DNA of 63,997 nt, counting the filler, from Perkinsus olseni (taxonomy: Eukaryota): the NCBI GenBank assembly GCA_013115125.1. It is 5 parts of 5 records of this genome, joined end to end, with 100 filler letters (N's around TTAATTAATTAA, not from the genome) between each part and the next. Parts side by side here need not be neighbours in the genome. Positions count along the whole stretch, not along the records: positions 41,440 to 55,133 come from JABANN010000749.1; 4 more parts are not named here. One strand, given 5' to 3'. This document shows, piece after piece, positions 400-63,238 of this stretch. A program made the position numbers and the translations under genes. The first letter of the stretch is position 1. Every line of letters begins with the position of its first letter. The notes beneath the pieces were generated by a model. That model was not told the origin of the DNA. It saw only the letters and a program-made list of their open reading frames with translations, and did no database searches.

Positions 400-2750
400 G
401 CCACTCAGTGGATTTATCGATCATAGCTACGGTGTCCGCAAGTACAATTCTGTTGGTTGGTGTATGGGGTTCCCAATGCTGGCAGTGACAGAGCTAAGGG
501 CTGAGAATGGTATCCTTGGTGCTGTCGCCCTTACATTGCGATGTTCTACCATAGTGGCGGCACCATCATCTCTGCGGTCTACACAGTTGCACGCATACGT
601 TGAGGATTTCGCCGCCCTTGTTCGCCTTCGTGTTGCAATCGGATGAGCATGGGACAGCAAGTGTTTCAAATAAACTTGCTGCCTGGAATTGAACCAGGGT
701 GCTTCGCTTCCAAAGCAGGTGCTCTAACCGACTAATCAATTCAGCCGCAATCTGCTTCACTGGAACTTGGAGTGCCGCCCCTGACCTTCCACGGCACATT
801 AATAATGATATAATTATGGGAACCAGAGTCTCTAAATTGAAATAACGATCTCGTAATTAAACTCTCTTATTTTGTCGGGGAAGGTGAAGGAGCGAAGAGT
901 TCATTTTTCGGGTGATGTGCCCGAATGGTTGATCGCGGGTGTCGATTGAAGCTTTCCTTACACATCGTGCTGTCCATGGTACAATCGTGGAGCAGAGGAA
1001 TGTGAGGAATGAAATCTCGGCCGCCTTGGCCAGAAATATAAGGAAGTTTAGTGAGTTCAGACGGCGGTAGACAAGTCCTCCGATTGAAACTGTCCTTAAT
1101 AACGAGCAATACATGACTTAATTATCACGTCTTCCTGCTCTTAGGTTTCGACCGACTTCTTCTGCGTCTTCCTCCATCCTCGCGGTCCGCTGGGTCACAA
1201 AAGAGCACTTGAACCTCAAAAAGATGGATTCGCTCCACAATCGTGAAGTTTCTCAGCACGAAGAGCTGCCACTCCGATAATACACAATTTTGGTCTTCAA
1301 AAACTCTTCCGAATGCCGGCCGCTGCGGTCTCCTTAGCGTTAAGTCCTATGATGAATGGCGCCACTGACACCGTGCCAGCGCCTCTCCTTTCGTGAAGAC
1401 GCTCTTTAACGTGTTGACCACAGCGCCTCTGTAATCTTCTTTTTCAGAGTTCTACTAGCGCCAGGGGCAGCGGCAGCACCGCCCTAGGTCGTAGATACTT
1501 CTGCGCTGCCTTTTTAGAATTGGACTCGTGGGCGTGCAAGTCGGCAGGTGCTATTTTGAAAAAGCTTGGTGGTGTGTTGCTTTGAGAATTGGGCGGTCTC
1601 CATCCAGTGGGGATCGTAGTTCGATCCCCGGCCATTGTTTCTCGAATTTTGCATTCGTCCAGATCCCTCCAGTGCTTCGTGACTCCATCGTATGGGATTG
1701 AGTTTGGGAGATCCCGAGTTCAATTCTCGCTGGTAACATCTCTATAGCCGCGGAATAAGAGGCTCGTCTTTTCCGAAGCTGTGAGTGAGACTTCTCAGTT
1801 TAACAAACTCGACACGCTGTCTCTCCCACACTGTAACTGAGAAGTATTCGAGTAAGAGTGTACGGGTCGGAGCTGTTGATTACGACCGGGGGCGCTGTTG
1901 TTGTTCAGGATTTAACGAGTGTTGTATATTATTTTCTTGCTCCATGTCCGCATATCAAACAACAGGAGCCCAGTACAGTTCCAAGCAGGATGAGGCGCAA
2001 GGTGATACAAACGGGAAGATGGGGCTGTCTAGCTCGGAAATTTCGCGGAAATTTTGTCACTGCGAGTTTTGAGGAATGCAGCTCGCCGTTGGCTTGTTCG
2101 AAATAAATGCCGACTTTCGTTGAATTTTTCATCTGTTTATTGCAAGCATCGGGCGAAGATAATTCTTCTTGTGCTTTTTGTCTTTCTCGGAGTGTACTGT
2201 ACGCGTCGCGCCGCCTCGTCGGTCTCTTCAACGAGATGAGCGCTTAAAACGAGCTCGTCGTCCTGAAGTGAGGACGACGAGCCACCTCATGCTTCATCGT
2301 GCTCGTGGCTCGAGGACGTTCCATCTCATGTTCAGTCTGAGTTACATGTGAAACATTTGACGGTAACATGAGCTACCTCATTTCACCTGACTTGACCTTC
2401 TTATTTCATCTCGACGGCTTCCTGAAGGCGATTGTTCCAACCTCAACCATACTGAATGATGTGAAGTTGGCAGCGCCGCTGGAGTATGCACTCGCGGCTC
2501 ATCTGTTGTTACAGGTCGAGCAGCTTAGGGTACACCTAACAGTGAGGTGGATGAACTCGAAAAAACCGCGAGTGTATTGAACTGAAGGCTTTAAGGATGG
2601 ACCCACCTAGTGGCCCGAAATGAAATCGTCGAGCTGGAACAAGTGGTTGTTGCTGTTCAGCCCAGGGGAGGGGTCCTGCCCGGGCTTGATAAATCGGCTC
2701 GAGCAGTGGATACGTGAGAAACGATCTAGTCCCTCGACGCTCCACTGCGA
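400..2750 (-). mobile_element. Highly degenerate non-LTR (LINE-like) RT/RNase H remnant
   Basis: Broken minus-strand motifs occur in LINE order: KPGQDP-like (~2680), GTVLG (~1965), KYL (~1495) and a possible RNase H-like segment (~620-660). Many stops and frameshifts; boundaries approximate. Confidence 0.3.
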
Positions 2751-13829: not shown

Positions 13830-14242
13830 CCACCAGAGCTGCGAGCACGGGCGTGTATGTCGCTCTTCTTGCCAGTGGCTCTACACTAGTACCACTGTCA
13901 TTGAGCGAGGCGGATAAACTCGATCTAGCTACGAATAGCTGCACTTTATACTCTGGGCGGGACTTGAACCCGCAACCTTTGGAATAGAAGTCCAACGCTC
14001 TATCCGATTGAGCCACCAGAGCTGTTTAGATTACCTTGTATATTCCTTTCTGTGCGAATGGCTCTCAACACTACTACCACATGGCATGTGGCGAGGCGGA
14101 TGAACTTGGCTACAGCTACGAATAGCTGCATCTCCTGCTCTGGGCGGGACTCGACATTACCGTGCGTGTAGCGCCGCGTTTTACCTCGATCAAGCAACGA
14201 TAGTTACATCTGTTACTCTGGTCAGGACTTGATGCCGCGACT
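13830..14242 (-). repeat. Edge of a tandem tRNA-Arg(TCT) array (~185-bp unit) with decaying copies
   Basis: tRNA 5' end at 13830-13839, a full tRNA at 13949-14022, and 3'-end fragments at ~14137-14155 and 14214-14242. The two spacers are homologous. Confidence 0.8.
13949..14022 (-). tRNA. tRNA-Arg (anticodon TCT)
   Basis: GCTCTGG TG GCTC AATCGGATA GAGC G TTGGA CT-TCT-AT TCCAA AGGTT GCGGG TTCAAGT CCCGC CCAGAGT A; all four stems pair. Confidence 0.95.
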
Positions 14243-14407
14243 AGAAAAAAAAGACAGCTTCAGGACTCAATGATATAAGCCACAGCCGTCGCGACGATGA
14301 TATAAGCCACAGCCGTCGCGAGGGGTCGAGCCGCGCTTGCCAGGGGGGGGCCTTCAGACGGGACACCAACCGGTCCCTGTGATCGCCTCACGTAACCATC
14401 TGCTCAG

Positions 14408-41439: not shown

Positions 41440-42078
41440 TGTGCGCTGAGGCACGTCTGGGCAACGTGACCTAAAGTTGCGACGAGCAAAGTTGCCGAAT
41501 TGTATCATGCCCCTTCCAAACGTCCCTGGTGTTCACCAGACTGAATCGAGTTTCAAGATTCTCCGCCTTCCCGAGTTGAATTGGACCTCAAAGGCCCCCT
41601 AATCTCCAGAAAAGGCATCAGTCTATTGTTGAACACCCCCATCCCGAAAGACTACCGTCAACACGCCGAGCGCCAAGATCGACACGTGACGAGTAGCAAG
41701 AGAACATAACGCTACCGCTACACGACAGCCTCGTAGAACTCAGCTTTCTTGCATTTTCCGCTATTACAGAGCACACGATAATGAGCATAGAAAGAGATGC
41801 CATGAAGGTTGACCCTACTGCAGTTCCACGGCAGATCTCGCGTTGAGGAATGCACGAGGTAAGCCAAGGTCGCAAGATTTTTCTAGCTTTTAGTTGTCAT
41901 CATCATCTTCTAGAACTGCTCAGTGTGTTTCCTTTGAGGACTCAGTCGCTTGAGGGGCTCGTCGGCGAAGCAGCAACTTGCTCACCACTTCTTCGAGTCG
42001 AGGTGGGAATCTTAGGTCGACTTTGGTAAGATACAAATTGAGTCAACTCCCTGCTCACAGCCTCTTTAATCGATCAAC

Positions 42079-43589
42079 ATGGCTGACGTCTCTTTCGGCG
42101 TTGGTATTCTCTGTACCCTTCTCGCCGCCTTTTTCTACGGTATCCAATACGTGCCCTGTAAACAATACACCACCTTCGACGGTGCCGTCTTCCAATGGTT
42201 CATGTGCAGCGGTATTCTCTGGGGCGGCATCGTTCTTCAACTCATCCTGATGCTCGCTTTCGACTGGCCCGGTCCGCAGGTCATCCTCTACGGCGTCCTC
42301 TCCGGCATGCTCTGGGGCTCGGCGAATTTCCTGGTAATTCCTCTGGTCAGGATCTGCGGGCTGGCCTTGGGCTTTTCCCTATACCACATCATCAACTTAT
42401 CCTGGGGGTACTGTCTCAGTCGTTTCGGCCTCTTCGGGATGGACCAAGACGTCGGTCGGATACCCGTCCTTAGAGACGTTGGTGTCTTCGTGCTCCTAGC
42501 CTCCTTCGTTATGCTGTTCTGGGTTGAACCAGAGGAGGCGAAGGCCACCACCGCTCCCCTGAAGACCAAAGAAAGACCGTCGCAGAGCGTTCGTCACAAG
42601 GCTACGGCGCCGACCCAGTCCGATGAAACCTCTCCCATGGGCCAGGAGAATGATGACGACGTTGAAGTCGTTAAGAGCCCAACAGCAGGACAGCCGTCGA
42701 GGAAATATCTCTTTGGTCTGAGTCGCGTGCACGCCATTAAACTAGCAGGTAAATCGCCACTTAAATCTCTCCATTCCTCATTGCCGGGTCATTCAGGTAT
42801 CGCCTTAGCCATCGCCGCGGGAGTGCTGACTGCCATGAATGGATGGCCGTATGCTCTGTGGGCTCAGACCCAACAAGGGAAGGACATGATGGCGGTAGTA
42901 CACGGGAAGAGGTTGGGGGGCGCGGATACCAAATTTTGGAACTCTAATCGTTACTTCTAATTTCGCTTGTTAACTCGAACCGAAATTCTACCCTCGCGAT
43001 TCTAATCGTTCCAAATACCAAATTTCGCCCGAATCATTTGCATCTCGAATTAGCACTGTTCGCGCTATCTACACCCATTGCCACCATATTCTGTTCACCA
43101 GTGACCCCACGTCATGCGTCTCTGCAGGTGCAATTTGTATTCTCCCAAACCATTGGTATCTACGCCGTCTCCAGTATCTGGTACTGGCTCTCATCGACCA
43201 TCCGACAATTCGCTTTTAAAAAGCGTACCAATCACTCAGTTATTCGTCCAGCCTTCATTGCCGGTAGTGCCGTCTGTGGGATAGAACCTCTGCGGGATGT
43301 GATACAGCGGGTTTCAGGTCTCTTCTGGGTCATCGGTGATGTCAACATGCTTTACGGAATCGATGGTATCGGCTACGCGGCAGCTTACACTTTAGACGCT
43401 GTCGGACCGGTCATGGTCGCTAGTGTCCTCAGCCTTTTGTGGTTCAAGGAGATCAAGGAAACAAGGTGAATAAAATACCGTCGCCGGGGTTCGAACCAGA
43501 GACCTCTATTTCTCAGGCAGCGTCTATGGTTCACCGGTTCATTCGTCACTCAAGTCGCAGGTTGTATAATGGTAGCCGTAGGCGCCTAA
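42079..43589 (+). CDS. TMEM144: TMEM144-like (DMT superfamily) membrane protein, 5 exons
   Basis: FYGIQYVPCKQYTTFDGAVFQWFMCSGI, GMLWGSAN..GLALG..W..SRFGLFG and GPVMVASVLSLLWFKEIK match the TMEM144 pattern. Introns include 43264-43317 and 43466-43516. Confidence 0.85.
43268..43292 (-). pseudogene. tRNA 3'-end fragment (Lys-like) at the 5' end of TMEM144 intron 3
   Basis: Minus strand GGTTCTATCCCACAGACGGCA resembles a T-loop plus the CCCAC AGACGGC-N end of tRNA-Lys(TTT). Confidence 0.5.
43472..43507 (-). pseudogene. tRNA 3' half with T4 terminator inside TMEM144 intron 4
   Basis: AGAGGTC TCTGG TTCGAAC CCCGG CGACGGT A TTTT. Confidence 0.75.
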
Positions 43590-43957
43590 GAGTGCATCTA
43601 CTGCACCCAATACATTTTCCAGTCGAGTATCATTTAACAAAGGTGTGGTATGAAAAAATCCACACGCCTGCGCAGAAAATCATCCTAGGTATCTTGTAGA
43701 CTTGTAGTAGTAAAATATCTTTATTCCGTCAGTGTCACCCAGAGAAGCTTTCGCTGCCGTCCCGAATCCTTCGACGATTGCTCCTCTGACGTCTTGTGTT
43801 ACGCTATTTATCGACTACCAGCCAGCTTTGTTGTCCCCCTCCTACGAGGAGAAGACCACACGACTTTGCGGCTGTTTACGTTTTCCGACTCTTCGGTGGT
43901 TGGGTTGACGATCGCTGTTAATGGACTGCAAGAAGGAGAGAATAGCTTTTCATTAGC

Positions 43958-45151
43958 ATGTCGGACGGCGTGGAGGAGGACAGGGAGATCACACGCGATA
44001 TCTACGCCCTTTTAGCGGACAGCAGGGCCGAGCTATTCGATGACACAGTCGAAAGGTGAGCTCCTAATGGGTTCGAGTGACTGTAACAATGACTCTCTAA
44101 CTCGTGGAAGTAGCTGAGCTATGGAGACATAAGGGAGCAACTGTAGAGGAGAGTTAGGGCACCCAGCGTAGGGCGACGACCAACAGCGATTAGCTACGGA
44201 TCCTATGCTGCACATAAATGTCCGCATAATACCGTAACAAACTCCCTCTCTCGGTGCAATCAGTTCTCGGAGCGATCGTCTCGTCGGTGGTCAGTCGTCT
44301 CTCCGCCGCTCTGGCCCGTCTGCTGGCGAGGTTGCGTCAGAACAGCGGTGATCAGTGGATCGGGAATCGAATTGTAAAGGAGGTCCTGCTAGAAAATGGT
44401 AGGTCCTGGGATTCGAACCTGCGTCCAATATCCTCGACCATCAGGTACCGATCTCTTAATTAGAGTCATGAAGCGCTTCCCGGACCTCGCTGAACTGGCT
44501 GGCGAATGCATCGCCGCGGCAACCTCAGAAAATGTCATCTGCGGTTCCGGGGCGCCAACAACCGTCACTTTCGGCACTCCACCTCACGACGTTCAATTTC
44601 ACATGCAAACCGCCGACTACTACGGCGCTGGTCTCGGCTATAAAATATGGCCCGCCGCGATCGCGCTGGCCCGAGCAATCTATCAACATGATGTATCCCT
44701 CGGAGACCATCCGAAGGTTGTAGAGATCGGTGCAGGAGTCGGGCTAGCGGGCATTGCTGCGGCTAAATTCGGCGAAGCTTCTTCCGTCTGCTTCACGGAC
44801 AGGATGGCCGGGTCGTTGGAAGTCGCCATGAGAAACGCCAAGAGGAACTGCCTCAGCGGCAGATTTAGTAGTAAAGTCGTGGACTGGCGTGACGCTGATG
44901 GCCTGCCTGATGACGCTGATGTGATGCTCGGCGCGGATGTCATTTACGAGGAGGCACACGCCGAGCTGATCATGCAGCTGTTGAGGAACTTCCACGGCAA
45001 GAAGGCAGTACTAGCACTCATGCCACAGAGGCCAGGGTATAGGGAATTCATCTCGAAATTGAGGAATCTCAAGAGTGTGCAAGTTGCCAAGATGTCCGTG
45101 TCTACTCCGATAGGAGAATGTTCAATATTGGAGATCTCGGTGATTGACTGA
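43958..45151 (+). CDS. SAM-dependent methyltransferase, Methyltransf_16/METTL21-like; 5' exons tentative
   Basis: GYKIWPAAIALA, VVEIGAGVGLAGI, FTD, VDW and LGADVIY motifs. The intron 44399-44444 joins ..EVLLENG to TDLLIRVMK in frame. Confidence 0.85.
44399..44427 (-). pseudogene. tRNA 3'-end-like fragment at the 5' end of the methyltransferase intron
   Basis: Minus strand GGACGCAGG TTCGAAT CCCAGGACCTAC has a perfect B-box GGTTCGAATCC. Confidence 0.55.
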
Positions 45152-45641
45152 AGTCTCCATTCAATAATCTTCGCTGTGCGCGTAGGAAGATACGACTTTA
45201 TAAGATCGTTTTACCATCTCAAAGTGTCTCTGCCGTTTTCATTTTGATGGGTTAACTGTCGAGCTCATCAATCGTTCAAGAATTGTCGCTGCACACGCCG
45301 GCCAATATATCATGGAAAATTTACCGCAGAAATAAAACGGAAAGAGAATACGATGCACCGATGGCCAACACTCTCATGTGGAATTGGATCATTTCGTGCG
45401 TGTGTCTGAATAGCATCCAAAGCGTATATGAAGCCAACACGCACACCAAAGGGATCCACTTTGTCTCAGCACCTTGGGAAAATTAATGAAACTGCTCGAC
45501 ACGGTTTACCTCGTGACTTATGCGCAAAAGCCATCTCTTGACGAAAAATGCCGGGCCTGGAGTTGCACCTGAGGCTGCACTGGCTATCTCGAGTTGACGG
45601 CTTCGCTTCGCCACGAAGGCCTAGCGATCAACCCAACGCAC

Positions 45642-47131
45642 TCACGAGACGTTCCTTTCCTCACTGACACCGCGACTGCCGTAATAACTCAACACTCCTT
45701 CCTCCGGTGTTTGCACTAATTCTTTCATTCGCTACATTCACATCATCACGCTGCGGGGTCCTTCACTTGTGGGGAGGCCGCTGTCATACTCGACGAGGCC
45801 GCTCCTTTAATACCACTCCCTGCGCAAATCACAGCTGCACAGGGACACCCGAGGAGATAATCCAAACCCCACCTTTATAGCTCTCCTGCATGGCACCTTC
45901 ACCTCTACTCGTCGGCGGGGCTCGAGCGCTCTTCCCCAAGGCATTCTCCAACTCTTGATAAGCAGACCGCTGTATGTTTTGGGTGTTTTGAAGCCGCTAA
46001 AGAGAAGCAGCCGCTGAAAAATTCCAACGCCGTCCTCCGATCGTCACTTGGATGAGTTCCATCTCCTCCTTCTCCATGGCCGACACCAACGCCTCCGTGT
46101 GGGCTCGTAGCGTCTCCTCCTGCTGCACTTTATTTTCATAGTCCATTCGGCAGCTCTCCAGCTTTCGGAACTGATACCACAACATACGCAACTCCCAAGC
46201 CCGTCGGCCCCCCTCATCACCTTCTCTTGTTCGATCCTCTTCTTAGCATTGTCCCTCTGGCTTCGTATCGCCGTCGCCCTGCTCGTGTTGGCACCCCTGA
46301 AGCACGGCCTCCCACCACCCCTCTGCCCCTCCCTCCCACATGTCCCTCATCCACTTCTCCTGTCTCTGCCTTTCAAGCTTCATCTGCTCCTCCCGCCCCT
46401 CACGGACAAGATGCCGCTTCGATTCGAGCATCGCAGATCTCGTCGCCTGACAACACGCCATCGGAACCCCACAGCAGCGTCTTCTCGTCCCACCTCTCGC
46501 TGCTGCTTGGCCTTGTCCTTCATAAACGCATTCCTCGCCTGGCTGGCCCGAGCTGCCTCCCACTTCTTTTTGTGCATCTGACGACGCCCCAACGGTGCAT
46601 GACCGACCAGCGGACGCACTAGTGACGGTCACCTGCTCTTTGGCGATGACTTTTGCTTCATTCTCAGCTCGCAGTGTGTTGATTTGCTCAGCCCTGAAGC
46701 ATATCTTAGGTCGGCCCGTGAAAGATACCGAATAGGTCCGGCTTACTTTCTACGAGTCTCCTGTATCTTTTTCCAAGCCTTCTCCTCCTCTTGCTTCAGT
46801 AGTGCTATGCGGTTGGCAAGCAGCTGGGCGTCGAGTTCGGATCTCTTTCGAGATTCCTTCGCGACCTGATAACTCACTCGTGCAGCCCACTTTGCCCTAC
46901 TGGGAAGACCGACTTACCGTCAGAGTCGCGCGCATCTGGCTCACTTCGCCTTGCAGCTGCGACGTCGCCGTACTGGTATTGTGCAAATGCTGACCTGAGA
47001 ACAGCTCTGACCTGTTTTGAGTTCTGCATGGTTCGACCTAAGATACACCTACCACCTCCAGCTGATCCATGCAGAACGCTCTGGGACTGCTCTTGGGCGC
47101 TGTTATCGACCGAGACAGGCTGGTTCTCCAT
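45642..47131 (-). CDS. Multi-exon coiled-coil hypothetical protein
   Basis: Spliced exons AQLLANRIALLKQEEEKAWKKIQETRR..ALVSAMEKEEMELIQRLQNTQNIQRSAYQELENAL. The 3' end is uncertain. Confidence 0.65.
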
Positions 47132-48103
47132 TAGACAATGCAAAACTGCCAACCACCGCCGACGCGTTGCGATGATTCCCGCAAACTTCAAAGCATCCTT
47201 CTCTCGACAACCCACGACGAGCTCATGTGATGCCAGAGGTGACCGCTGTCCGGGGCTCCTCTACCCTCTGCCTCATCGTCATCACCTCGTCGCCTTCGAT
47301 AGAATGCCGACGCTTCCTGCGAATACCAAATCTTCACCGCCACTCGAATGGCACCTACATGCTCATCCGCCTTGCCGCGCTACAAAGAGCCGCAGCCGAC
47401 ACGCAGAGGTCGCCGTCGAGCGAGTCGGAGTCTAGGTCCGCACACCACACTAGCCGACGGGGTAGACGATAGCCTGAAGCGTTCGATGAAGGGTTACTCT
47501 GGAGACGAATACTCACCATGAGGAGTACAGAATGGCTCCGGTCCGAGAGTGAGGTGCCCCTTCCTCGGGAAACACTCCCTGAGCGATCGCTCGGAGTTGC
47601 AGCGCCTGATCGAGGCAGTAGGGATCGTCAAGGGGACGACATGGGTCTTCCTATCCGACCTCAACCGTCTCGAGGAGGTGGTGTCCGATGACAAGCTTGA
47701 AAGGCGGCCTGAGGTTTGGGAAATACGGCTGGCCCGTCGCTGTTGATGGACCGACGGAAAATTCCGAGAGGAGTCCGTCCTCTCTGCAGAATAGTCGGAG
47801 TCTCCTTCAGCTCTTCTCGCCGCGCTATGCGCTGCTCGAAATCTTCAACTAGATGACGGAAGTGAACAGCGTCGGAGGACAAGACATGCTGTTTAACCAT
47901 AAAGAGGAAACTATCGGTGAAGAATCAACGAGATTGTACCTCCTGTAGCGTTCGAACCGGCGACCTGTCGCATCTAGGACGAACACCATGTCCAGCTGAG
48001 CCACGCCGCTCACGGCACACACTGAAAACCTCCCAATGAAGCGACGGCCATTGACAAAATCGGAGCATCCCTCTTCATAGAAAAGGAGTAACATAACCAC
48101 CAA

Positions 48104-50049
48104 TCACTGAATTCTCTCGATGACCACACTCGTCGCCCCTCCTCCGCCATTACATATTGTCGCACAACCGACACTGTAATCATTCTCACCCAAAATTCTC
48201 GTCAAAGTCCCCACCAGACGGGCTCCTGAGGCTCCAATGGGGTGCCCGAGAGCCACCGCCCCTCCGTCCACGTTAACCCTCGACGGATCTAGGTCCAATA
48301 ATTTCATATTGGCGATGGCCACCGACGAGAAGGCCTCGTTAATCTCCCAGACGTCAACGTCCCTGAAAACAACAAGGCGTCTAAACTGAGATAATCGCAA
48401 CTAGTTTACAAGTGAGACCATCCTGTTTGGAAAAACATCTCTTCACAACGGAAACCAACTCAAGCAAGACCGCCAGCTCTCCACTGTGGAGGACGCATGC
48501 ATGCCGCCCCCGCCGCCGCCGCCGCCGCGCGGATGAGGCGGAATGGCTCCCCCATGATGCTCACTTCGGCGTCATCCCTGCCTTCTGCAGTGCCACCCTC
48601 GCTGCCCCGGCCGGTGAGATCGAATAATCTATGGGGTCCTGCTCGAAATCTGCCCAGGAGATGATCCTGATCAGCCAGGCCACTTCAACAATCGATCAGC
48701 CGGGCGGGCGCTTCTATCACCGAGCCAGCGGGGTCAAGCCTTGTTCCCGAGAGAATTCCTCACTGACGACGACGAGTGCCGCTGCACCATCGTTGAGCTT
48801 GGAGGCGTTGGCGGCAGTAATGGTGCCATCTTTGATGAAGGCTGGTCGGACCGCTGCCACCCGCTCGATCTTCAAGTTCGTGAACCTGAATTCGACAAGT
48901 TGTTTCCAACAACCACGAGAGGTGAGACTCACTCCTCATCACTGTAAAAAATTTTAGGTTCGCCACCCTTGACTGTTGGGGGGACTTCAACTGGGAACGC
49001 CTAGGGAACGCTAACGCGTTGCGGATCTCGGGACGTGCGCAGCAACATTCGAGTTGGACTGGAAAGTGATGCACCGAACCTCCGAAACTTGCCTCATTCT
49101 TCATCTTTCCTTTACTCCACGCCGCGGCCGCCCTCTGATAGGACTGGATGGCGTAGTCATCCTAACGCACGAAGCAGCATTCAACTCGTAGCGGCGGGCC
49201 AAGACAGCACTTGCTCCTCTCGAGTAATGCCAAACTCTTTAACGGTCTTCTCAGCACACTTGCCCATGTGGATGTCGTTATAGACATCCCAGAGCCCATC
49301 TCTCAAGACTAGATCTACCAGCTGGCCATGGCCGTATCTAAAACACTCATCGCCCGATTAGTTCAGCTGGATAGAATGTCTGCCTACGGAGCAGATGGTC
49401 GTAGGTTCGAATCCTGCATCGGGTACTTACTTATACCCGCCACTCCTAGCCTCCGTCAATGCATGTGGCGTATTGCTCATCGACTCCATCCCTCCAGCAA
49501 CAATCTGCCATCATTCTATACCACCATCCACTGAGGAGTCACCTACCACATCGGCCTCCCCCACAGCGATGGAAGTAGCCGCGATAGAGACCGCCCTCAT
49601 ACCACTGCTGCACACTTTATTAACACTCATCACAATCGTGGACGAGGGAAGCTTGGCCGCCAAAGCTGCCTGACGTGCCGGGGCCTGACATAGATAGACA
49701 AACCGCAGTCGCACAGAACGAACCCACGACCACTGGCAGCGTAGGGGTGAAGATTAACCACTCGCCCATACTACCTGTCCACAAGCCGCTGAGAGTACAT
49801 GCCCCATGATAACCTGATCCACCTCTCCACCATCGACCTTCGCTTGAGCCAATGCTCGCGTGATGGCCTGAGGCGATCAAACATATCCCCTCAATCGCCT
49901 GTTAATGCTTTCCCAAAACCACCCACATGAGCTGCTAGTTGAGGCGCCTTGAACGACGACAACCTCCCCAAAAAAGAACCGATCGGAGTTCGAGCATAGC
50001 CGACTATCACCGCCGACCGAGGCAGGGAGAGGGGACGTATGATAGGCAT
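48104..50049 (-). CDS. Acetyl-CoA C-acetyltransferase (thiolase), multi-exon
   Basis: [73 protein letters not shown] and CNGGGG. Includes a GC-AG intron at 49001-49092. Confidence 0.95.
49352..49425 (+). tRNA. tRNA-Arg (anticodon ACG), antisense within a thiolase intron
   Basis: GCCCGAT TA GTTC AGCTGGATA GAAT G TCTGC CT-ACG-GA GCAGA TGGTC GTAGG TTCGAAT CCTGC ATCGGGT A; all stems pair. Confidence 0.95.
49704..49774 (-). pseudogene. Degenerate full-length tRNA (Ser-like) forming a thiolase intron
   Basis: GTAGTATGGGCGAGTGGTTAA...GGTCGTGGGTTCG..GCGACTGCG retains an A-box, a partial B-box and GTAGT/ACTGC acceptor pairing. The anticodon arm has decayed. Confidence 0.55.
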
Positions 50050-50579
50050 GAAAAATGAAGCCCCCAGCCACTAGACCCGCGCAAGTTCGATCCCCAGGTC
50101 CGCAACCCAACGCCATTGACCAGCATTAAGCCGCTGACACGCATCTGCCCGAACGACCTCCACAACTAACCAGCCTGCTTGCACAGAATTGACGGTATTC
50201 AACCACAGGAAGAGGCGCTTGCAGCGGCGGAGGCGGCAATATCCCCACTAACAGTAGGAGTATGATAAATGTGATAATAATTGAGCAATGACAACGTGAT
50301 TTTGAGAAGTGCTATTATTACTACCGATAGAGCATCAATCAACATCAACAACGGTATGGCATCAACCGCTATTACAGGTTTACTGACATCACCACCTTCA
50401 TTAGAGATGCATCAAGGAGATACAAAATGGTAATTCGCAATGACGACGACCATCGTGCACAGCCGGATGAATAGGTAGAAGAACAAACTCAGAAATTATT
50501 GATAAGTATCTAAGGTGGAACCACGAAAGATACAGAACAGCTCAAGACTGGAATGCAGTATTCGTAGAGCCTGGCTTAC

Positions 50580-51590
50580 TCATTGCACTGTTCCTTCAAC
50601 TGTCGGTGTTCGCCCTTCAGGAGGGAACGGGGCGAAGGGTATCGGCAAGGCTTCTTCCTCCAGCACTGGCGCCTACGCAGGAACAGCACCCCAACCTGAT
50701 GGCACCGCAGAGTATCCAAACCCGGGCATACGTTAGGCATGGATCCTCCTCCTCCGGTCGGCCCTCCACCAGCCCCAGCGCTCATCATCGGAGTTGATAG
50801 TTCCCTTTGACGTGCCGTAGAATTGAAGAGCGAGAACCCCTTATACTGAGAGCCAGCTCTCCCGCCTCAACGCTATGCCCTCCCTATCCTAACCTTAATA
50901 GCGTAGTAGAGTGTGAGTGCTCCTGTAGATATCATAAACATGCCCGACAGGACACAGAAGAACGACCAGAACCTGACCAGGAGTGGGTCGGAGCGATCGC
51001 AGACTCCCTAACGGCCTACCCAGAGTTGACCTTGACTCCGTCGTCTTCTCCCAGTAACGCCATCAGCATCCTGGCCTCGCCCTCTTCACGACTGCCCTCT
51101 GTTACCGATCGAACCGACTTGTACGTATAATTGCCACTACACAGCATTCCTATTACCTGAAAAAGGGGGGAAACCTTTAGCGGAGCGAAGCTCTTCGAAT
51201 GTTATTACTATGTAGAAGACAGCACGACCGATGAATGAAGTCATGAAGGGTAGAACAGCCCGTATAACTTTATGAGCCTTCGAGTCTCGGGGCCTGACAA
51301 CAAACGCTGACTCTCCATCCAAAGGTCCCCGGATCGATCCCTGCAGCCTGCATTTTCATACCACAACTCCGCAATCATCCCGGCAACACCCAAGCCACCA
51401 AACAAGGCAAGGTCAGCCAAATTACGTAATAACCTCCACAACGAATACTGAGGACAGAAAATGTACCTGAGAAAATACAAATACCCCTCCCGGGGTTCGA
51501 ACCCGGGACCTCCTACGATAACGAATGCACCACCATCAATAAGCATGAGCCGCTCCCACTGAGGCGAAGGATGTGCTCGATGCTAGCCAT
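50580..51590 (-). CDS. COPI-associated/TVP15-like small membrane protein, 6 exons
   Basis: Spliced MASIEHILRL..GMIAELW..VLPFMTSFIGRAVFYIVIGML matches the COPI-associated pattern (FxxxxxGRxxFY). Confidence 0.7.
51317..51356 (+). pseudogene. tRNA 3' half with T4, antisense in COPI-gene intron 2
   Basis: ATCCAAAGGTC CCCGG ATCGATC CCTGC AGCCTGC A TTTT. Confidence 0.6.
51482..51516 (-). pseudogene. tRNA 3' half forming COPI-gene intron 1 (sense)
   Basis: GTAGGAGGTC CCGGG TTCGAAC CCCGG GAGGGGT A followed by TTTGTATTTT; the T-arm is perfect. Confidence 0.8.
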
Positions 51591-51767
51591 AATTACAACA
51601 AACTCGATGAAAGCAGTAGAACATTTTCCCCTAAACGCAAGCCTCGGAGGAAACGATAAAATCACTCCATCGTTCTCTCCACTAATAACAAGCCCGCATA
51701 CGAAGGCTTTCGCAGAGGCCCGAAAATGACTGGTAAAAATCTGAAAGGACCGCTGATGCAATGATGG

Positions 51768-52645
51768 TCAGAGGAATCCTGACGCGCACCCGGAAGATTT
51801 TCTCCCTGGATGTCTGCGAATTGAATCTTTATACGTTTCTCCTTTGCAAAGTAGCCAACAATGGAGGCCGACGTTTGGGACCTGACAGGTTCGATCGTGA
51901 TGGCCTGGGTTGGATCTGCGATATGGCACTACTACCGCTGATACTATCCCGACGATGGATGCCAATACTAAGGCTAACGACGCCCAAGGGAGTCTCCGGC
52001 TGATGGCGAAAAACAAGTACCTGACACAACAAACCGTTCTCAAGCACCGTCCTCCAACCCGAAGGTCTCCGGATCGAATCCTTGCTGTGATATCTCGAAG
52101 CCTCCTTATTACACCACGACGATCCCTCCGGCAGCCGCTGTCCCGATCCACATTTGACACATCCGAGGCAATGCAGAGCGTGATAATAAAAACAATATGA
52201 TACTGACCGCGACAGCACAACAGACCTGAGACAACCATCACTACCACCGACGTCACTCCCCACCAACCACTATCCATGCAACCGGTATGGGAACTATCGT
52301 CCTCCCTCGGTCATCATCAGTAGCGAAGGCCACGCAGGCACAGACCCCCACTCCTACGCTGAGGAGCATGTAAATGCTGCATACCACAACAAACAGTATC
52401 TGATGGCAGAGCAGATGGTCTCGGATCTATCACCCACCGTCTTACGAAGGCTCGTCTGTTCCGCAGTCCGATGCAGTTGTTCACCACCGCACAGTGATGA
52501 TCGAACTCTCGAATACAGTAGCCGCACTCGGAGCCTGTCTTGAAGGAGCCTCAGGGGTAGGACGAGGAGAGAGTACCCTTACAGTGACTCCATCCATCCA
52601 GGCGATAAATCTTGCAAGTGCTGCAGAAACGGACGTCATGACCAT
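51768..52645 (-). CDS. Hypothetical multi-pass membrane protein, multi-exon
   Basis: Splicing 52021-52112 gives [53 protein letters not shown]. The start is tentative. Confidence 0.55.
52056..52092 (+). pseudogene. Initiator tRNA-Met-like 3' half, antisense in an intron
   Basis: AACCCGAAGGTC TCCGG ATCGAAT CCTTG CTGTGAT A has the GGATCGAA T-loop and TGATA end typical of eukaryotic initiator tRNAs. Confidence 0.7.
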
Positions 52646-53209
52646 TGGAAAGGGCTTTGGCCGTATCCAGGTCTAGACGGGTGTTCACATAGAGGGCGTA
52701 ACTGATGGTGATTTGGGGAAGAGATGGTATGGCAACGATGAATCACCTGCCGTCATTGAAGCTCTGCCCCCTCACGTCCCGTATCTCGCGCTGATACCTG
52801 GCAAAACGCAAGATACGATCCCGAAAATCCAAGCCACGGAGTTGGGCATCGTGCCACGAAGTGGCAGCCGAGCTGCTGGCCTACGCTTCATCGGGGCCTT
52901 GACCTGTCCTCGACAACACTTCCAATGGCGGCACGGCGCCGGGGTCCGAGAGTGCTGTATCAAGGAAAAGTACTACTGTAGAGACGAAGAGGGTCTGAAG
53001 GGACGATGGTGGAGGGAAGGGGATCGACGAGGGTTCACCAGGCTGCCTGCCTCCAGGCCCGGATGAGGCTCTGGGAGATCATAGAAGAGGGAGAGGAGGA
53101 CTAGGCCCAGGTGGAGGAGGAGGCCCGACCCTGTTAGAAGGAGGAGCGAGGGGGCTGAAAATGACATCACTAAATTAACGCATACAGGTGGCGACGGAGC
53201 CGTGCCCAA

Positions 53210-53312
53210 GATACTCTACGAGTCGACCTCAAGATACACTTCACGAGTCGACCTCAAGATACACTTCACGAGTCGACCTCAAGATACACTTCACGAGTCG
53301 ACCTCAAGATAC
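53210..53312. repeat. 25-bp tandem repeat, ~4 copies
   Basis: ACGAGTCGACCTCAAGATACACTTC starts at 53218, 53243, 53268 and 53293. Confidence 0.92.
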
Positions 53313-54150
53313 TCCTAGGACCGATCTTAAGGTGGCGTATAAATCGACGTCGAAGTGCCCTCGTACAGCTCTTCCTTCGGGGTGCATACATCCAGGGCGT
53401 CAGTGACTGGAGCATATCTTGGGCATGAAGGTGACCGAAGGTAATCATTCAACTCGCAGCAGCCATTGTATCGCCACCACCGTCGTCCCCAATTGCTCCC
53501 CTCGAACGTTTTTCCCCACAAATATAATCGTTCATCATTATATAATCGTTCATAACCGTGCGTGCGGCGGACCGCGAACGGGAATCGATGCCCGTGCCCC
53601 ACCGTTTCTTCTGGCGCTCATCCGAGGTACCCGTACTCGAGCGTAGCAAAACTGTATATCCTCTTCGTTGTATGCATGTTCATCAGCGATAAACGCGAAC
53701 GCTCGAAACTTCGATTTCCATGATCCACGTGAACAATGTGTCGGGCACGGAAACAGAAACAATTACATCGATCACCCCGAGCAACGGAGTAAGGGACCGT
53801 GCGAGGCCACTAGTAGTCCTTGTGGAGCATATCTTAACTCGGAGCTTGACCTTCACTGGGGAGAGCACGCTTCGACCAAAGATATGCCTTGGTGAAAATT
53901 GATAATTGGTGGAATGATCACATCGTGGCGGCTGTGAGTGAAAGTCTATCGCAACGCAAAACAACCTTGCTAGTGAATTGAGTTAACACCACACTGGATA
54001 TGATAGCAAGGGAATGCCTTAGAAAGCCTGATTTAACTTGATTGTTGGGGGTAAGCCGCCCTGGACTGAACTCAGTGCCATTAAGGTCTCAAGAAAAAGG
54101 CTAACTTGAATAAGTATAGGTCGGGTCTAGGATAATATCTAATATTCTGA

Positions 54151-55133
54151 CTATTCAACTGATCTTCCTAAGCTAATACAGCGGCTGCACGCATACTCAG
54201 GTTCCTTGCTGGAGCGAGGTGGCGCGCGGAGCTTGTTGTCTACACGTAGACAACACAGAAAAATCAGGGACTCTCTCTCCATAGACACCACCCGTGATGC
54301 CATGAACACGGTAGACCTCGCGTCCATAGCTGCCACCGCCCATGGGGCTAGGCGTGAACACGAGTACCTCCGCACCGACCTTGGGTGGTCCACGTCTAGG
54401 GACGAACCTTCTTGCCGAAGAAGTAGTTGTAGAAGCCTTAATAGCGTCAGCGACGAGGCGATCCAAGTAGTCACCGTCCTCCCGCCTTTGACGAGCTTGC
54501 TCGGCGTCGGCTGGGGTAGGGGCTACAGAACCTGGGCTCTGAAGAGCATTCTCCACCGGGAAACGTCGTGGCCTCGCGAAGAATATCTCGTGCGGTGAAA
54601 GATCCACCCCATCCAAAGGCTTGGCATTGAGACGAGCGATCACCCGATGGATCTGCGTCGACCACGCACGCTTGGAAGCCAGCTGACGAGTGATGAACTT
54701 GATGGCGGACACCGACCGTTCTACGAGACCATTCGAGAAGGCCGCATAGGGGGGTAGTTGCTGATGAACCACCCCTTGGGAGGCCATGAATTCCATAAAC
54801 TTTCTCCCGCGGAAACAGGGTCCACGATCCGATCTCAGCCGGCCCATTGGGCCAAAGATGCTGATGAAGGTTGACAGGGCGCCGATGACCGAAGAGGAGG
54901 AGCTACTGCGCAGTGGAGCCACTAAGGCAAAGCGGCTGAAGTGATCCACCAGGAATAACGCAGAGGTATAAGTGCCCTTCCTGTCAGGACCCATCTCCGC
55001 GAGGTCAGCCGACACTATGTCCCAGCATCCATGGGCACCCTGTGAGAGGTTCCGACCACTGTCGCGGAGAGAGTAATATCGCTTGTTGTGGGCGAACTGA
55101 CATTGATCACAAGAACGGCAGACCTCAATGGCA
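54151..55133 (-). mobile_element. Ty3/Gypsy-like integrase (3' end of an LTR retrotransposon, cut by the contig end)
   Basis: CxxC Zn-finger end, SADL, LVDHFSRF, SDRG, PYAAFSNGLVER and SPHEIFF form a DDE integrase core. Confidence 0.88.
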
Positions 55134-63165: not shown

Positions 63166-63238
63166 AACATACTGGCATAGTGGTATGCGCCTCTGCTTCC
63201 ACGCGCACGGTCGCTGGTTCGAGCACAAGAGGCCGAAT
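63166..63238 (+). pseudogene. tRNA-like A/B-box element (pseudo-tRNA or SINE head)
   Basis: A-box TGGCATAGTGGT and B-box GGTCGCTGGTTCGAG at tRNA-like spacing; the stems do not pair. Confidence 0.45.

Follow-up and report, generated by a model that had tools for sequence, protein, structure and literature searches.

The stretch of DNA considered here, referred to below as the window, has a total length of 63,997 nt with filler included. It consists of five parts of the assembly GCA_013115125.1 of Perkinsus olseni, which parasitises molluscs, and positions 41,440–55,133 come from JABANN010000749.1. On the minus strand of this part lies a gene for a 228-aa membrane protein, the first two exons of which are separated by an intron of 50 nt (Table 1). 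Most of this intron resembles the 3' half of a tRNA. Other introns of the same gene and of neighbouring genes contain further tRNA-like remnants, and one intron of a nearby thiolase gene is almost filled by a live tRNA gene.

Table 1. Coordinates (positions of the window) of the intron, its parts, its flanking exons and the related elements
Feature	Position	Strand	Description	Evidence
50-nt intron	51467–51516	−	GT–AG, phase 2, in the gene of the 228-aa membrane protein	RNA-contig joint, open reading frame (ORF) test
Core F1	51482–51511	−	AGGTC variable loop, T-arm CCGGG/TTCGAAC/CCCGG, acceptor strand GAGGGGT, discriminator A	
Trailer	51467–51481	−	T-rich TTTGTATTTTCTCAG; pyrimidine tract and 3' splice site CAG	
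First exon	51517–51604	−	Acceptor AG 51604–51603, ATG 51590–51588, coding to ...VVHSL-S(TC)	Loose end TGAGCCAAG, ORF
Second exon	51362–51466	−	Starts G|TAC ATT..., YIFCPQYSLWRLL...	Contigs, ORF, P0040
Intron A	51294–51361	−	68 nt, same gene as F1; antisense remnant 51323–51352 (+), AGGTC..GCA then TTTTCATAC	Joint in 4/4 runs, motif
Intron B	52021–52112	−	92 nt, upstream DHHC palmitoyltransferase gene; antisense remnant 52063–52092 (+)	Joint in 4/4 runs, motif
Intron F2	43466–43516	+	51 nt, TMEM144-family gene; antisense remnant 43476–43505 (−), then TTTTATTCAC	P0004 threading, motif
Thiolase intron, 93 nt	49338–49430	−	5 nt + reverse complement of tRNA-Arg(ACG) (49352–49425, +) + 14 nt	
Thiolase intron, 90 nt	49685–49774	−	Weaker sense tRNA-Arg(ACG)-like remnant (CCTACG...TGGTCGTGGGTTCG), then TTTGTC...CAG	
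F5	47937–48002	−	Decayed tRNA-Arg-like pseudogene 3' of the thiolase stop codon, in no known intron; motif 47937–47966	

Splicing and reading frame of the 50-nt intron

Logan contigs of four runs from four studies (24 runs were listed) were placed on positions 50400–53500. Runs X1 and X17 are recorded as RNA-seq, and the RNA status of X2 and X4 is a guess. In each of the four runs, one contig lacks exactly 51467–51516 and joins 51517 to 51466. The joint itself was placed at 51463 to 51514 with 50 nt skipped, and the CT..AC found three positions from that cut is the GT..AG of the minus strand. The contigs bear spliced-leader and poly(A) loose ends, and at least 14 further joints of 42–92 nt, all GT..AG on the minus strand, lie in the same 3.1 kb. 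A minority of intron-retaining transcripts could escape contigs of this kind. The intron, which is the reverse complement of the window sequence and reads GTAGGAGGTCCCGGGTTCGAACCCCGGGAGGGGTATTTGTATTTTCTCAG, begins with GTAGGA and ends with CTCAG; a donor of the form GTAGG[AC] starts 3 of the 15 RNA-defined introns in the region.

The reading frame points to the same boundaries. Scripted joining of the exons with the 50-nt splice produced an ORF of 228 aa, running from the first ATG (51590) to the TGA at 50580–50582, and an ORF of this length from the first ATG past the spliced-leader site was obtained only by removing these 50 nt. Retention of the intron leads to a stop after 25 codons, and removal of 69 nt, as in the annotation of the sister copy P0003, leads to a frameshift. 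At the junction a Ser codon is split TC|G. P0040, a transcript-derived protein (MMETSP) of a related organism, reads ...LLMVIHSLSYIFCPQYSFWRLL... and contains the identical join, HSLSYIFCPQY. The 19 nt directly 3' of the intron (51448–51466, GTACATTTTCTGTCCTCAG) resemble its last 12 nt and include a second CAG. This second CAG is the one used by the P0003 annotation for its 69-nt intron; the RNA contigs do not use it, and the reading frame is lost with it.

The sequence-only reading of this segment had described it as an intron made of a variable loop, a T-arm, an acceptor strand and a T tract, spliced to give VVHSLS|YIFCPQY. The sequence and its division into these parts match exactly when the minus strand is read, and the intron and its junction were both confirmed. 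The segment is not exonic, being omitted from the RNA-derived contigs of all four runs. The 50 nt are an ordinary U2-type GT–AG intron of a spliced-leader-capped mRNA.

The tRNA-like core and its relatives in neighbouring introns

The T-arm of core F1 has five Watson–Crick pairs, or seven with the flanking T-A and C-G included. Towards its 3' side the core reads ...CCGGGTTCGAACCCCGGGAGGGGTA, and its 3' end, GAGGGGTA, is followed by the trailer, TTTGTATTTT. The first five nucleotides of the intron, GTAGG (51512–51516), now make up the 5' splice site; in a tRNA they would correspond to the 3' strand of the anticodon stem. Taken by itself, a T-arm has no significance, as hairpins with five pairs and a TTCGANN loop were observed twice in the window (F1 and a tRNA-Arg) against 0.86 expected. 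The fuller motif AGGTC-N5-[AT]TCGANN-N5-N7-A occurs five times in the window, compared with a mean of 0.085 in 200 dinucleotide shuffles, none of which reached five.

The same 3' end is also found on real tRNAs. A 20-mer with one Y, GTTCGAAYCCCGGGAGGGGT, was located at 19 metagenome loci, and at 10 of these it ends a tRNA gene called by ARAGORN (six Glu-TTC and four Leu-CAG); the other nine have no ARAGORN tRNA. Alignment of nine of the ten called tRNAs (L014 was omitted) gave a 5' strand of [GA]CC[CT]CT[CT] and a discriminator A. tRNAs ending in GAGGGGT-A do exist, the examples all being from metagenomes. In a search of 121 nt, the Rfam tRNA model gave a local match of positions 43–63 on AGGTCCCGGGTTCGAACCCCGG, with 12.1 bits and an E-value of 5.1. 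Neither an A box nor a D arm was found upstream of F1. At a threshold of 80%, ARAGORN returned 58 calls without introns and 135 with introns, including a 'tRNA-Asn' at 51482–51574; these calls were considered noise and were not used. As judged from its sequence, F1 appears to be at best the remnant of a tRNA 3' part and not a tRNA gene.

Four strong and three weak intron remnants and one live gene lie within 10 kb. The live gene, tRNA-Arg(ACG), was called by ARAGORN, scores 61.8 bits with the Rfam tRNA model and occupies 74 of the 93 nt of its thiolase intron in antisense orientation. The join of this intron, GGYK|YGHG, aligns gap-free to the PDB thiolase 6bn2_A and is also supported by threading of P0002. 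The flanks of the tRNA gene provide the splice sites, since the complement of its trailer gives GTAAGT and the complement of its A-rich leader gives TGTTTTAG. In addition, CTAAT in the complement of the tRNA 5' end resembles a branch-site consensus and may be a branch site. The 90-nt thiolase intron contains a 27-nt alignment to the live tRNA (p 0.004) and follows F1 collinearly as far as the CAG (z 2.7; 9/500 shuffles), with an nhmmer E-value of 8.2.

Introns F1 and F2 align over 39 columns with 32 identities and one gap (z 10). The F2 join, KETR|QRLWF, is continuous in P0008 from P. marinus, in P0011/P0013 (P. olseni and P. chesapeaki paralogues) and in the more distant homologue P0014. In intron A, the reverse-complemented trailer of the remnant provides the 5' splice site GTATGA, and an alignment over 35 nt to reverse-complemented tRNA-Arg(TCT) has a best-of-4 dinucleotide-shuffle p of 0.016. 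Introns A and B are 83% alike over 24 nt (alignment z 8.3). F5 matches tRNA-Arg(ACG) over model positions 9–68 with an nhmmer E-value of 0.059.

Similarity to tRNA was also measured across the local introns. The 26 introns other than the one with the live gene were each aligned, in both orientations, with the two live tRNAs and compared with 500 dinucleotide shuffles. Six of the 26 reached p ≤ 0.05, compared with 1 of 32 exon 60-mers: 49685–49774 (0.004), A (0.016), 52400–52445 (0.016), 51741–51789 (0.038), F1 (0.050) and B (0.050). The p of 0.10 obtained for F2 is explained by its parent being a tRNA other than Arg. Introns 51741–51789 (49 nt) and 52400–52445 (46 nt) hold traces only, the latter including a 12-nt exact match to the reverse complement of part of a tRNA anticodon stem and variable loop. 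The remnants resemble different tRNAs, being Arg(ACG)-like, Arg(TCT)-like or similar to another tRNA outside these two, and the T-stems of the sibling remnants are broken, with three or four of five pairs left. Intron length tracks the completeness of the remnant: 93 nt with the live gene, 92 and 90 nt with remnants of about full length, then 68, 51 and 50 nt, and 49 and 46 nt with traces. Other local introns are mostly 42–54 nt.

The T-run that follows F1 had been proposed to be an RNA polymerase III (Pol III) terminator serving as the polypyrimidine tract. That the T-rich stretch with its CAG serves as the acceptor is confirmed. Its origin as the trailer of the tRNA is supported indirectly. 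In F1, TTT and then TTTT occur within 11 nt after the discriminator, and in F2 and A, TTTT follows the discriminator directly. The remnants of F2 and A are antisense, so that their T-runs become AAAA beside the host donor (GTGAATAAAA, GTATGAAAA); since a T-run is useless there as a pyrimidine tract, it would belong to the tRNA unit. Similarly, the alignment of F1 with F2 extends into the trailer, the start of which (ATTTGTATT) aligns with ATTT-TATT of F2, which again argues that the trailer is part of the unit. For the terminator part of the proposal the observations are mixed: no TTTT was found in the 200 nt after tRNA-Arg(ACG) or in the approximately 120 nt after tRNA-Arg(TCT), and this absence after live genes weakens a simple reading of the T-run as a Pol III terminator.

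The core might instead be a chance or non-tRNA hairpin in an ordinary intron, or a small palindromic repeat of the type known from the introner elements of Amoebophrya, with a self-complementary GGTTCGAACC core. Both GGTTCGAACC and the GGATCGATCC of intron A are indeed palindromes, which counts against a tRNA origin, as do the frequency of T-arm-like hairpins expected by chance and the low Rfam score given above. The folding is equally unremarkable: the central 7-bp hairpin, with a centroid energy of −13.3 kcal/mol, is no better than shuffles, and no unusual fold stability was found when four introns were compared with their shuffles (z −0.03 to −0.78), so that a selected RNA structure was rejected. 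The element is, however, asymmetric in the manner of a tRNA, four of the five motif copies having AGGTC on the 5' side only and seven nucleotides, an A and a T-run on the 3' side (B and F5 are without the T-run). No terminal inverted repeats were seen, an identical 20-mer ends real tRNAs and a live tRNA gene has the same layout in a neighbouring intron, all of which makes a chance or palindromic origin improbable.

Even less probable is that the core is a functional Pol III-related element and not a relic, either as the half-gene of a split tRNA or as a TFIIIC site with only a B box. Split tRNA genes and TFIIIC sites of this kind occur in other lineages. The B-box-like GGTTCGAACCC of F1 is intact, its T-arm is perfect and a T-run follows. 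Against this, the upstream A box or D arm is missing, as stated above, and the T-stems of the siblings are broken as expected of decay. A split tRNA was considered separately and rejected, as nowhere in the window is [GA]CCCCTC, or a partner 7-mer of the other remnants, followed by a 5' half with a D arm.

Origin of the intron

An origin of F1 from the 3' half of a tRNA, as the sequence-only reading had proposed, is well supported by the motif statistics, by the metagenome tRNAs with the same 20-mer end and by the sibling remnants and the live gene in neighbouring mini-introns. The intron is probably what is left of a dead copy of a tRNA gene, shortened almost to the minimal intron size, in which the T-rich trailer of the copy itself now serves as the pyrimidine tract. 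Most of it would be a sense-strand copy of about tRNA positions 39–73, followed by the trailer. At one time a complete tRNA gene copy may have occupied a mini-intron here, in the way that the live tRNA-Arg(ACG) still occupies one in the thiolase gene, at a distance of 2 kb. This copy would then have died, and deletions would have trimmed it towards the length of the other local introns. What splicing needs would have been kept, namely a GT at the truncated edge and the T-tract of the trailer with its CAG. A whole gene that was trimmed later is favoured because of the length gradient.

The main rival is that the tRNA sequence was inserted into the coding exon as a 5'-truncated fragment, either a retro-copy of the 3' part of a pre-tRNA with its U-tail or filler at a repaired break. 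With its GT, T-tract and CAG it would have been spliced at once, with no full-length stage. This is closest to the earlier suggestion of a fragment pre-adapted to act as an intron. It is the less likely history, and the data fit a whole tRNA gene trimmed later at least as well, but several observations agree with it. The remnants all keep the 3' end, and the 5' start varies from about position 39 in F1 and 32 in F2 to further upstream in A and nearly full length in B and the 90-nt intron, which is the pattern expected of 5'-truncated retro-copies. The entire 50 nt can be read as tRNA plus trailer, and truncated 3' copies of tRNA-Arg(TCT) are present in a non-coding tandem array at about 14138–14242. 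However, stepwise trimming agrees equally well or better with the live full-length gene in the 93-nt intron and with the length gradient. A search based on the T-arm misses remnants of 5' halves only, so the constant 3' end is partly a matter of ascertainment. Nor is there a target-site duplication. The GTA repeat on either side of F1, B and others shows no pair specificity (downstream-exon permutation P 0.19) and is explained by a general preference for GT(A) after acceptors (11/27).

A number of points weigh against a dead, trimmed tRNA gene copy. The fuller motif was defined post hoc from general tRNA conventions. At the F1 site, the Rfam tRNA model gave no match in scans of 2 kb or of the whole window, and ARAGORN found no full cloverleaf or 5' half at its default or 95% thresholds. 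The 22-mer GGTTCGAACCCCGGGAGGGGTA has no second copy in the window with up to three mismatches, an exact 29-mer had no matches in metagenomes and the metagenome tRNAs that share the 3' end of F1 have no assigned organism. The lack of TTTT after the live genes, described above, belongs here as well. Among the relatives, F5 and a piece at 63208 have no Rfam tRNA match, and the weaker remnants have p values of 0.004–0.05 among 26 introns. Introns F2 and the two of the thiolase gene are based on annotation and homology and not on RNA, and the length gradient comes from eight introns in a single 10-kb neighbourhood.

There is a slight lean towards the arrival of the tRNA having created the intron, over colonisation of an older one. 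The share that is not tRNA-like amounts to approximately 19–25 nt in the fullest introns (93, 92 and 90 nt) and approximately 20 nt in F1 and F2, a remainder too small for an older intron. PMC3706591 reports over 500 copies of five types of tRNA genes in P. marinus, and such numbers fit the many remnants seen in this neighbourhood. More broadly, tRNA gene copies might be a class of intron-generating elements in Perkinsus, a possibility that is considered tentatively. Whole or 5'-truncated copies would land in coding exons in either orientation, would be tolerated because the splice signals come from their own flanks and would decay to a minimum of about 45 nt. A copy in sense orientation would contribute the T-run of its trailer with CAG, and one in antisense orientation the reverse complement of its trailer as a GTRWGW donor.

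The origin of new spliceosomal introns is a long-standing question. The few documented sources are introners, which resemble transposons, and, in rare cases, captured DNA from organelles or filler DNA. Within 10 kb, the present region has both a live tRNA gene that nearly fills an intron and a graded series of dead ones down to an intron of 50 nt, a hint that introns can be seeded or filled by tRNA genes. It is this wider pattern, not the single intron, that is of interest. For a very short intron, the flanks of a Pol III gene can be the source of every splice signal. If the pattern is true genome-wide, Perkinsus would make the question of intron origin testable. tRNA genes are easily recognised and dated, public data include several Perkinsus genomes and many RNA-seq runs, and presence or absence at orthologous sites could distinguish gain from colonisation. 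If tRNA gene copies do generate introns as a class, a sizeable share of Perkinsus mini-introns would descend from Pol III genes.

Two classes of mobile elements were compared with the present introns. In introners, as described for Amoebophrya (PMC7789003) and known from other organisms, the introns are likewise short, the inserted unit forms the whole body of the intron and several genes are affected in both orientations. In contrast, the unit here is a tRNA gene or remnant and not a transposon-like repeat, the copies are divergent (the F1–F2 alignment being an example) and the splice sites are canonical GT–AG. Beyond the missing terminal inverted repeats and target-site duplications, no end-to-end pairing above that of shuffles was detected. 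Short interspersed elements (SINEs) derived from tRNA share a dispersed tRNA-related sequence, a B box and a T-rich 3' end with the present elements, but here an A box, a body unrelated to tRNA and a shared tail are all missing, and there is no sign of one master sequence. The SINE test was accordingly negative, with neither an A box or D arm upstream of F1 nor a body common to the remnants.

Two other arrangements are partly similar. tRNA genes nested in introns of animals and plants also place a Pol III gene inside an intron of an RNA polymerase II gene, on either strand, and the live tRNA-Arg(ACG) in the thiolase intron is an instance of this arrangement. In the known examples a long intron carries the tRNA as a small passenger, whereas here the introns are of 50–93 nt, almost all of which is the tRNA unit, with splice signals that derive from its flanks or trailer. 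Introns that arose by capture of DNA, for instance of mitochondrial origin or as filler at repaired breaks, also consist of unrelated cellular DNA that entered a coding region and is removed as an intron. The known cases are single events, while the present introns would stem from nuclear tRNA genes and such events appear to have recurred. A literature search, supplements excepted, found no account of a spliceosomal intron derived from a tRNA, nor of mini-introns filled by tRNAs in Perkinsus.

Dada transposons are known from the same genus and show that its tRNA genes are very numerous and are broken by mobile DNA. According to PMC3706591, these elements of 4.7–11 kb target tRNA genes in P. 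marinus and insert at TAGCTC in the D arm. A tRNA split by Dada was rejected for F1 on the basis of that description, as the break lies 3' of the anticodon arm, by the variable loop, and the flanks are coding exons with no adjoining transposon.

Host gene, annotation and further tRNA-like sequences

The loose end found at the acceptor of the first exon (51604) in X1 contigs is also present at 53454. When reverse-complemented, this end matches the 3' part of the Perkinsus spliced leader PmaSL1 given in PMC3101222. An X4 contig has the loose end TTTTTTTT at 51655. The spliced-leader ends at 53454 and 51604, together with the poly(A) at 51655, indicate two mRNAs that lie head to tail on the minus strand. 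The DHHC palmitoyltransferase (Pfam PF01529) extends from about 53454 to the poly(A) site near 51655, and the gene of the 228-aa protein begins approximately 50 nt past the end of this mRNA. The 228-aa protein has a sub-threshold match to COPI_assoc, with E-values of 0.002 (P0003) and 0.0009 (P0002). A 70-nt intron (50510–50579) directly follows the TGA of its gene and is in the 3' untranslated region.

The public model P0002 (907 aa, 47191–53448, minus strand) fuses the DHHC palmitoyltransferase, the 228-aa membrane protein and the thiolase (acetyl-CoA acetyltransferase). This fusion of the host gene with its neighbours is wrong, and the correct frame is MASIEHIL...VVHSLS|YIFCPQY; a three-gene fused public model is corrected in this way. 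The window is eukaryotic. Its exons are 100% identical to annotated P. olseni proteins in uninterrupted tblastn pieces (P0002), and P0004 threads exactly through the DNA of the window.

Nearly all acceptors of the 27 introns between 42749 and 53038 are CAG. The exon that follows starts with GT in the 11 cases already mentioned and with G in 18 of the 27; the background of GT in exons is 6.7%, so that CAG|GT is strongly preferred. A candidate further intron, a 46-nt gap of GT..CAG form (GTAGGTCCTGGGATTCGAACC...) at 44399–44444 (+), joins two long ORFs and has a weak T-arm-like core (13.7 bits, E 0.33). The plus-strand gene at this place is presumably methyltransferase-like, as judged by eye.

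Other tRNA-like sequences are found outside known introns. tRNA-Arg(TCT) was rejected as an intron-borne gene, as it is situated in a non-coding tandem array (13830–14250) with truncated 3' copies at about 14214–14242 and 14138–14156. A further copy begins just before an N gap that contains a TTAATTAATTAA linker. Two tRNA-like pieces lie in stretches without clear ORFs, one at 677–745 (−) with 21.7 bits for the Rfam tRNA model (cut-off 29) and one at 1709–1738 (+) with 21.4 bits for a custom 3'-half model. A 25-nt unit repeated four times is present at 53213–53312, plus-strand downstream of the first annotated coding stretch of the DHHC gene.

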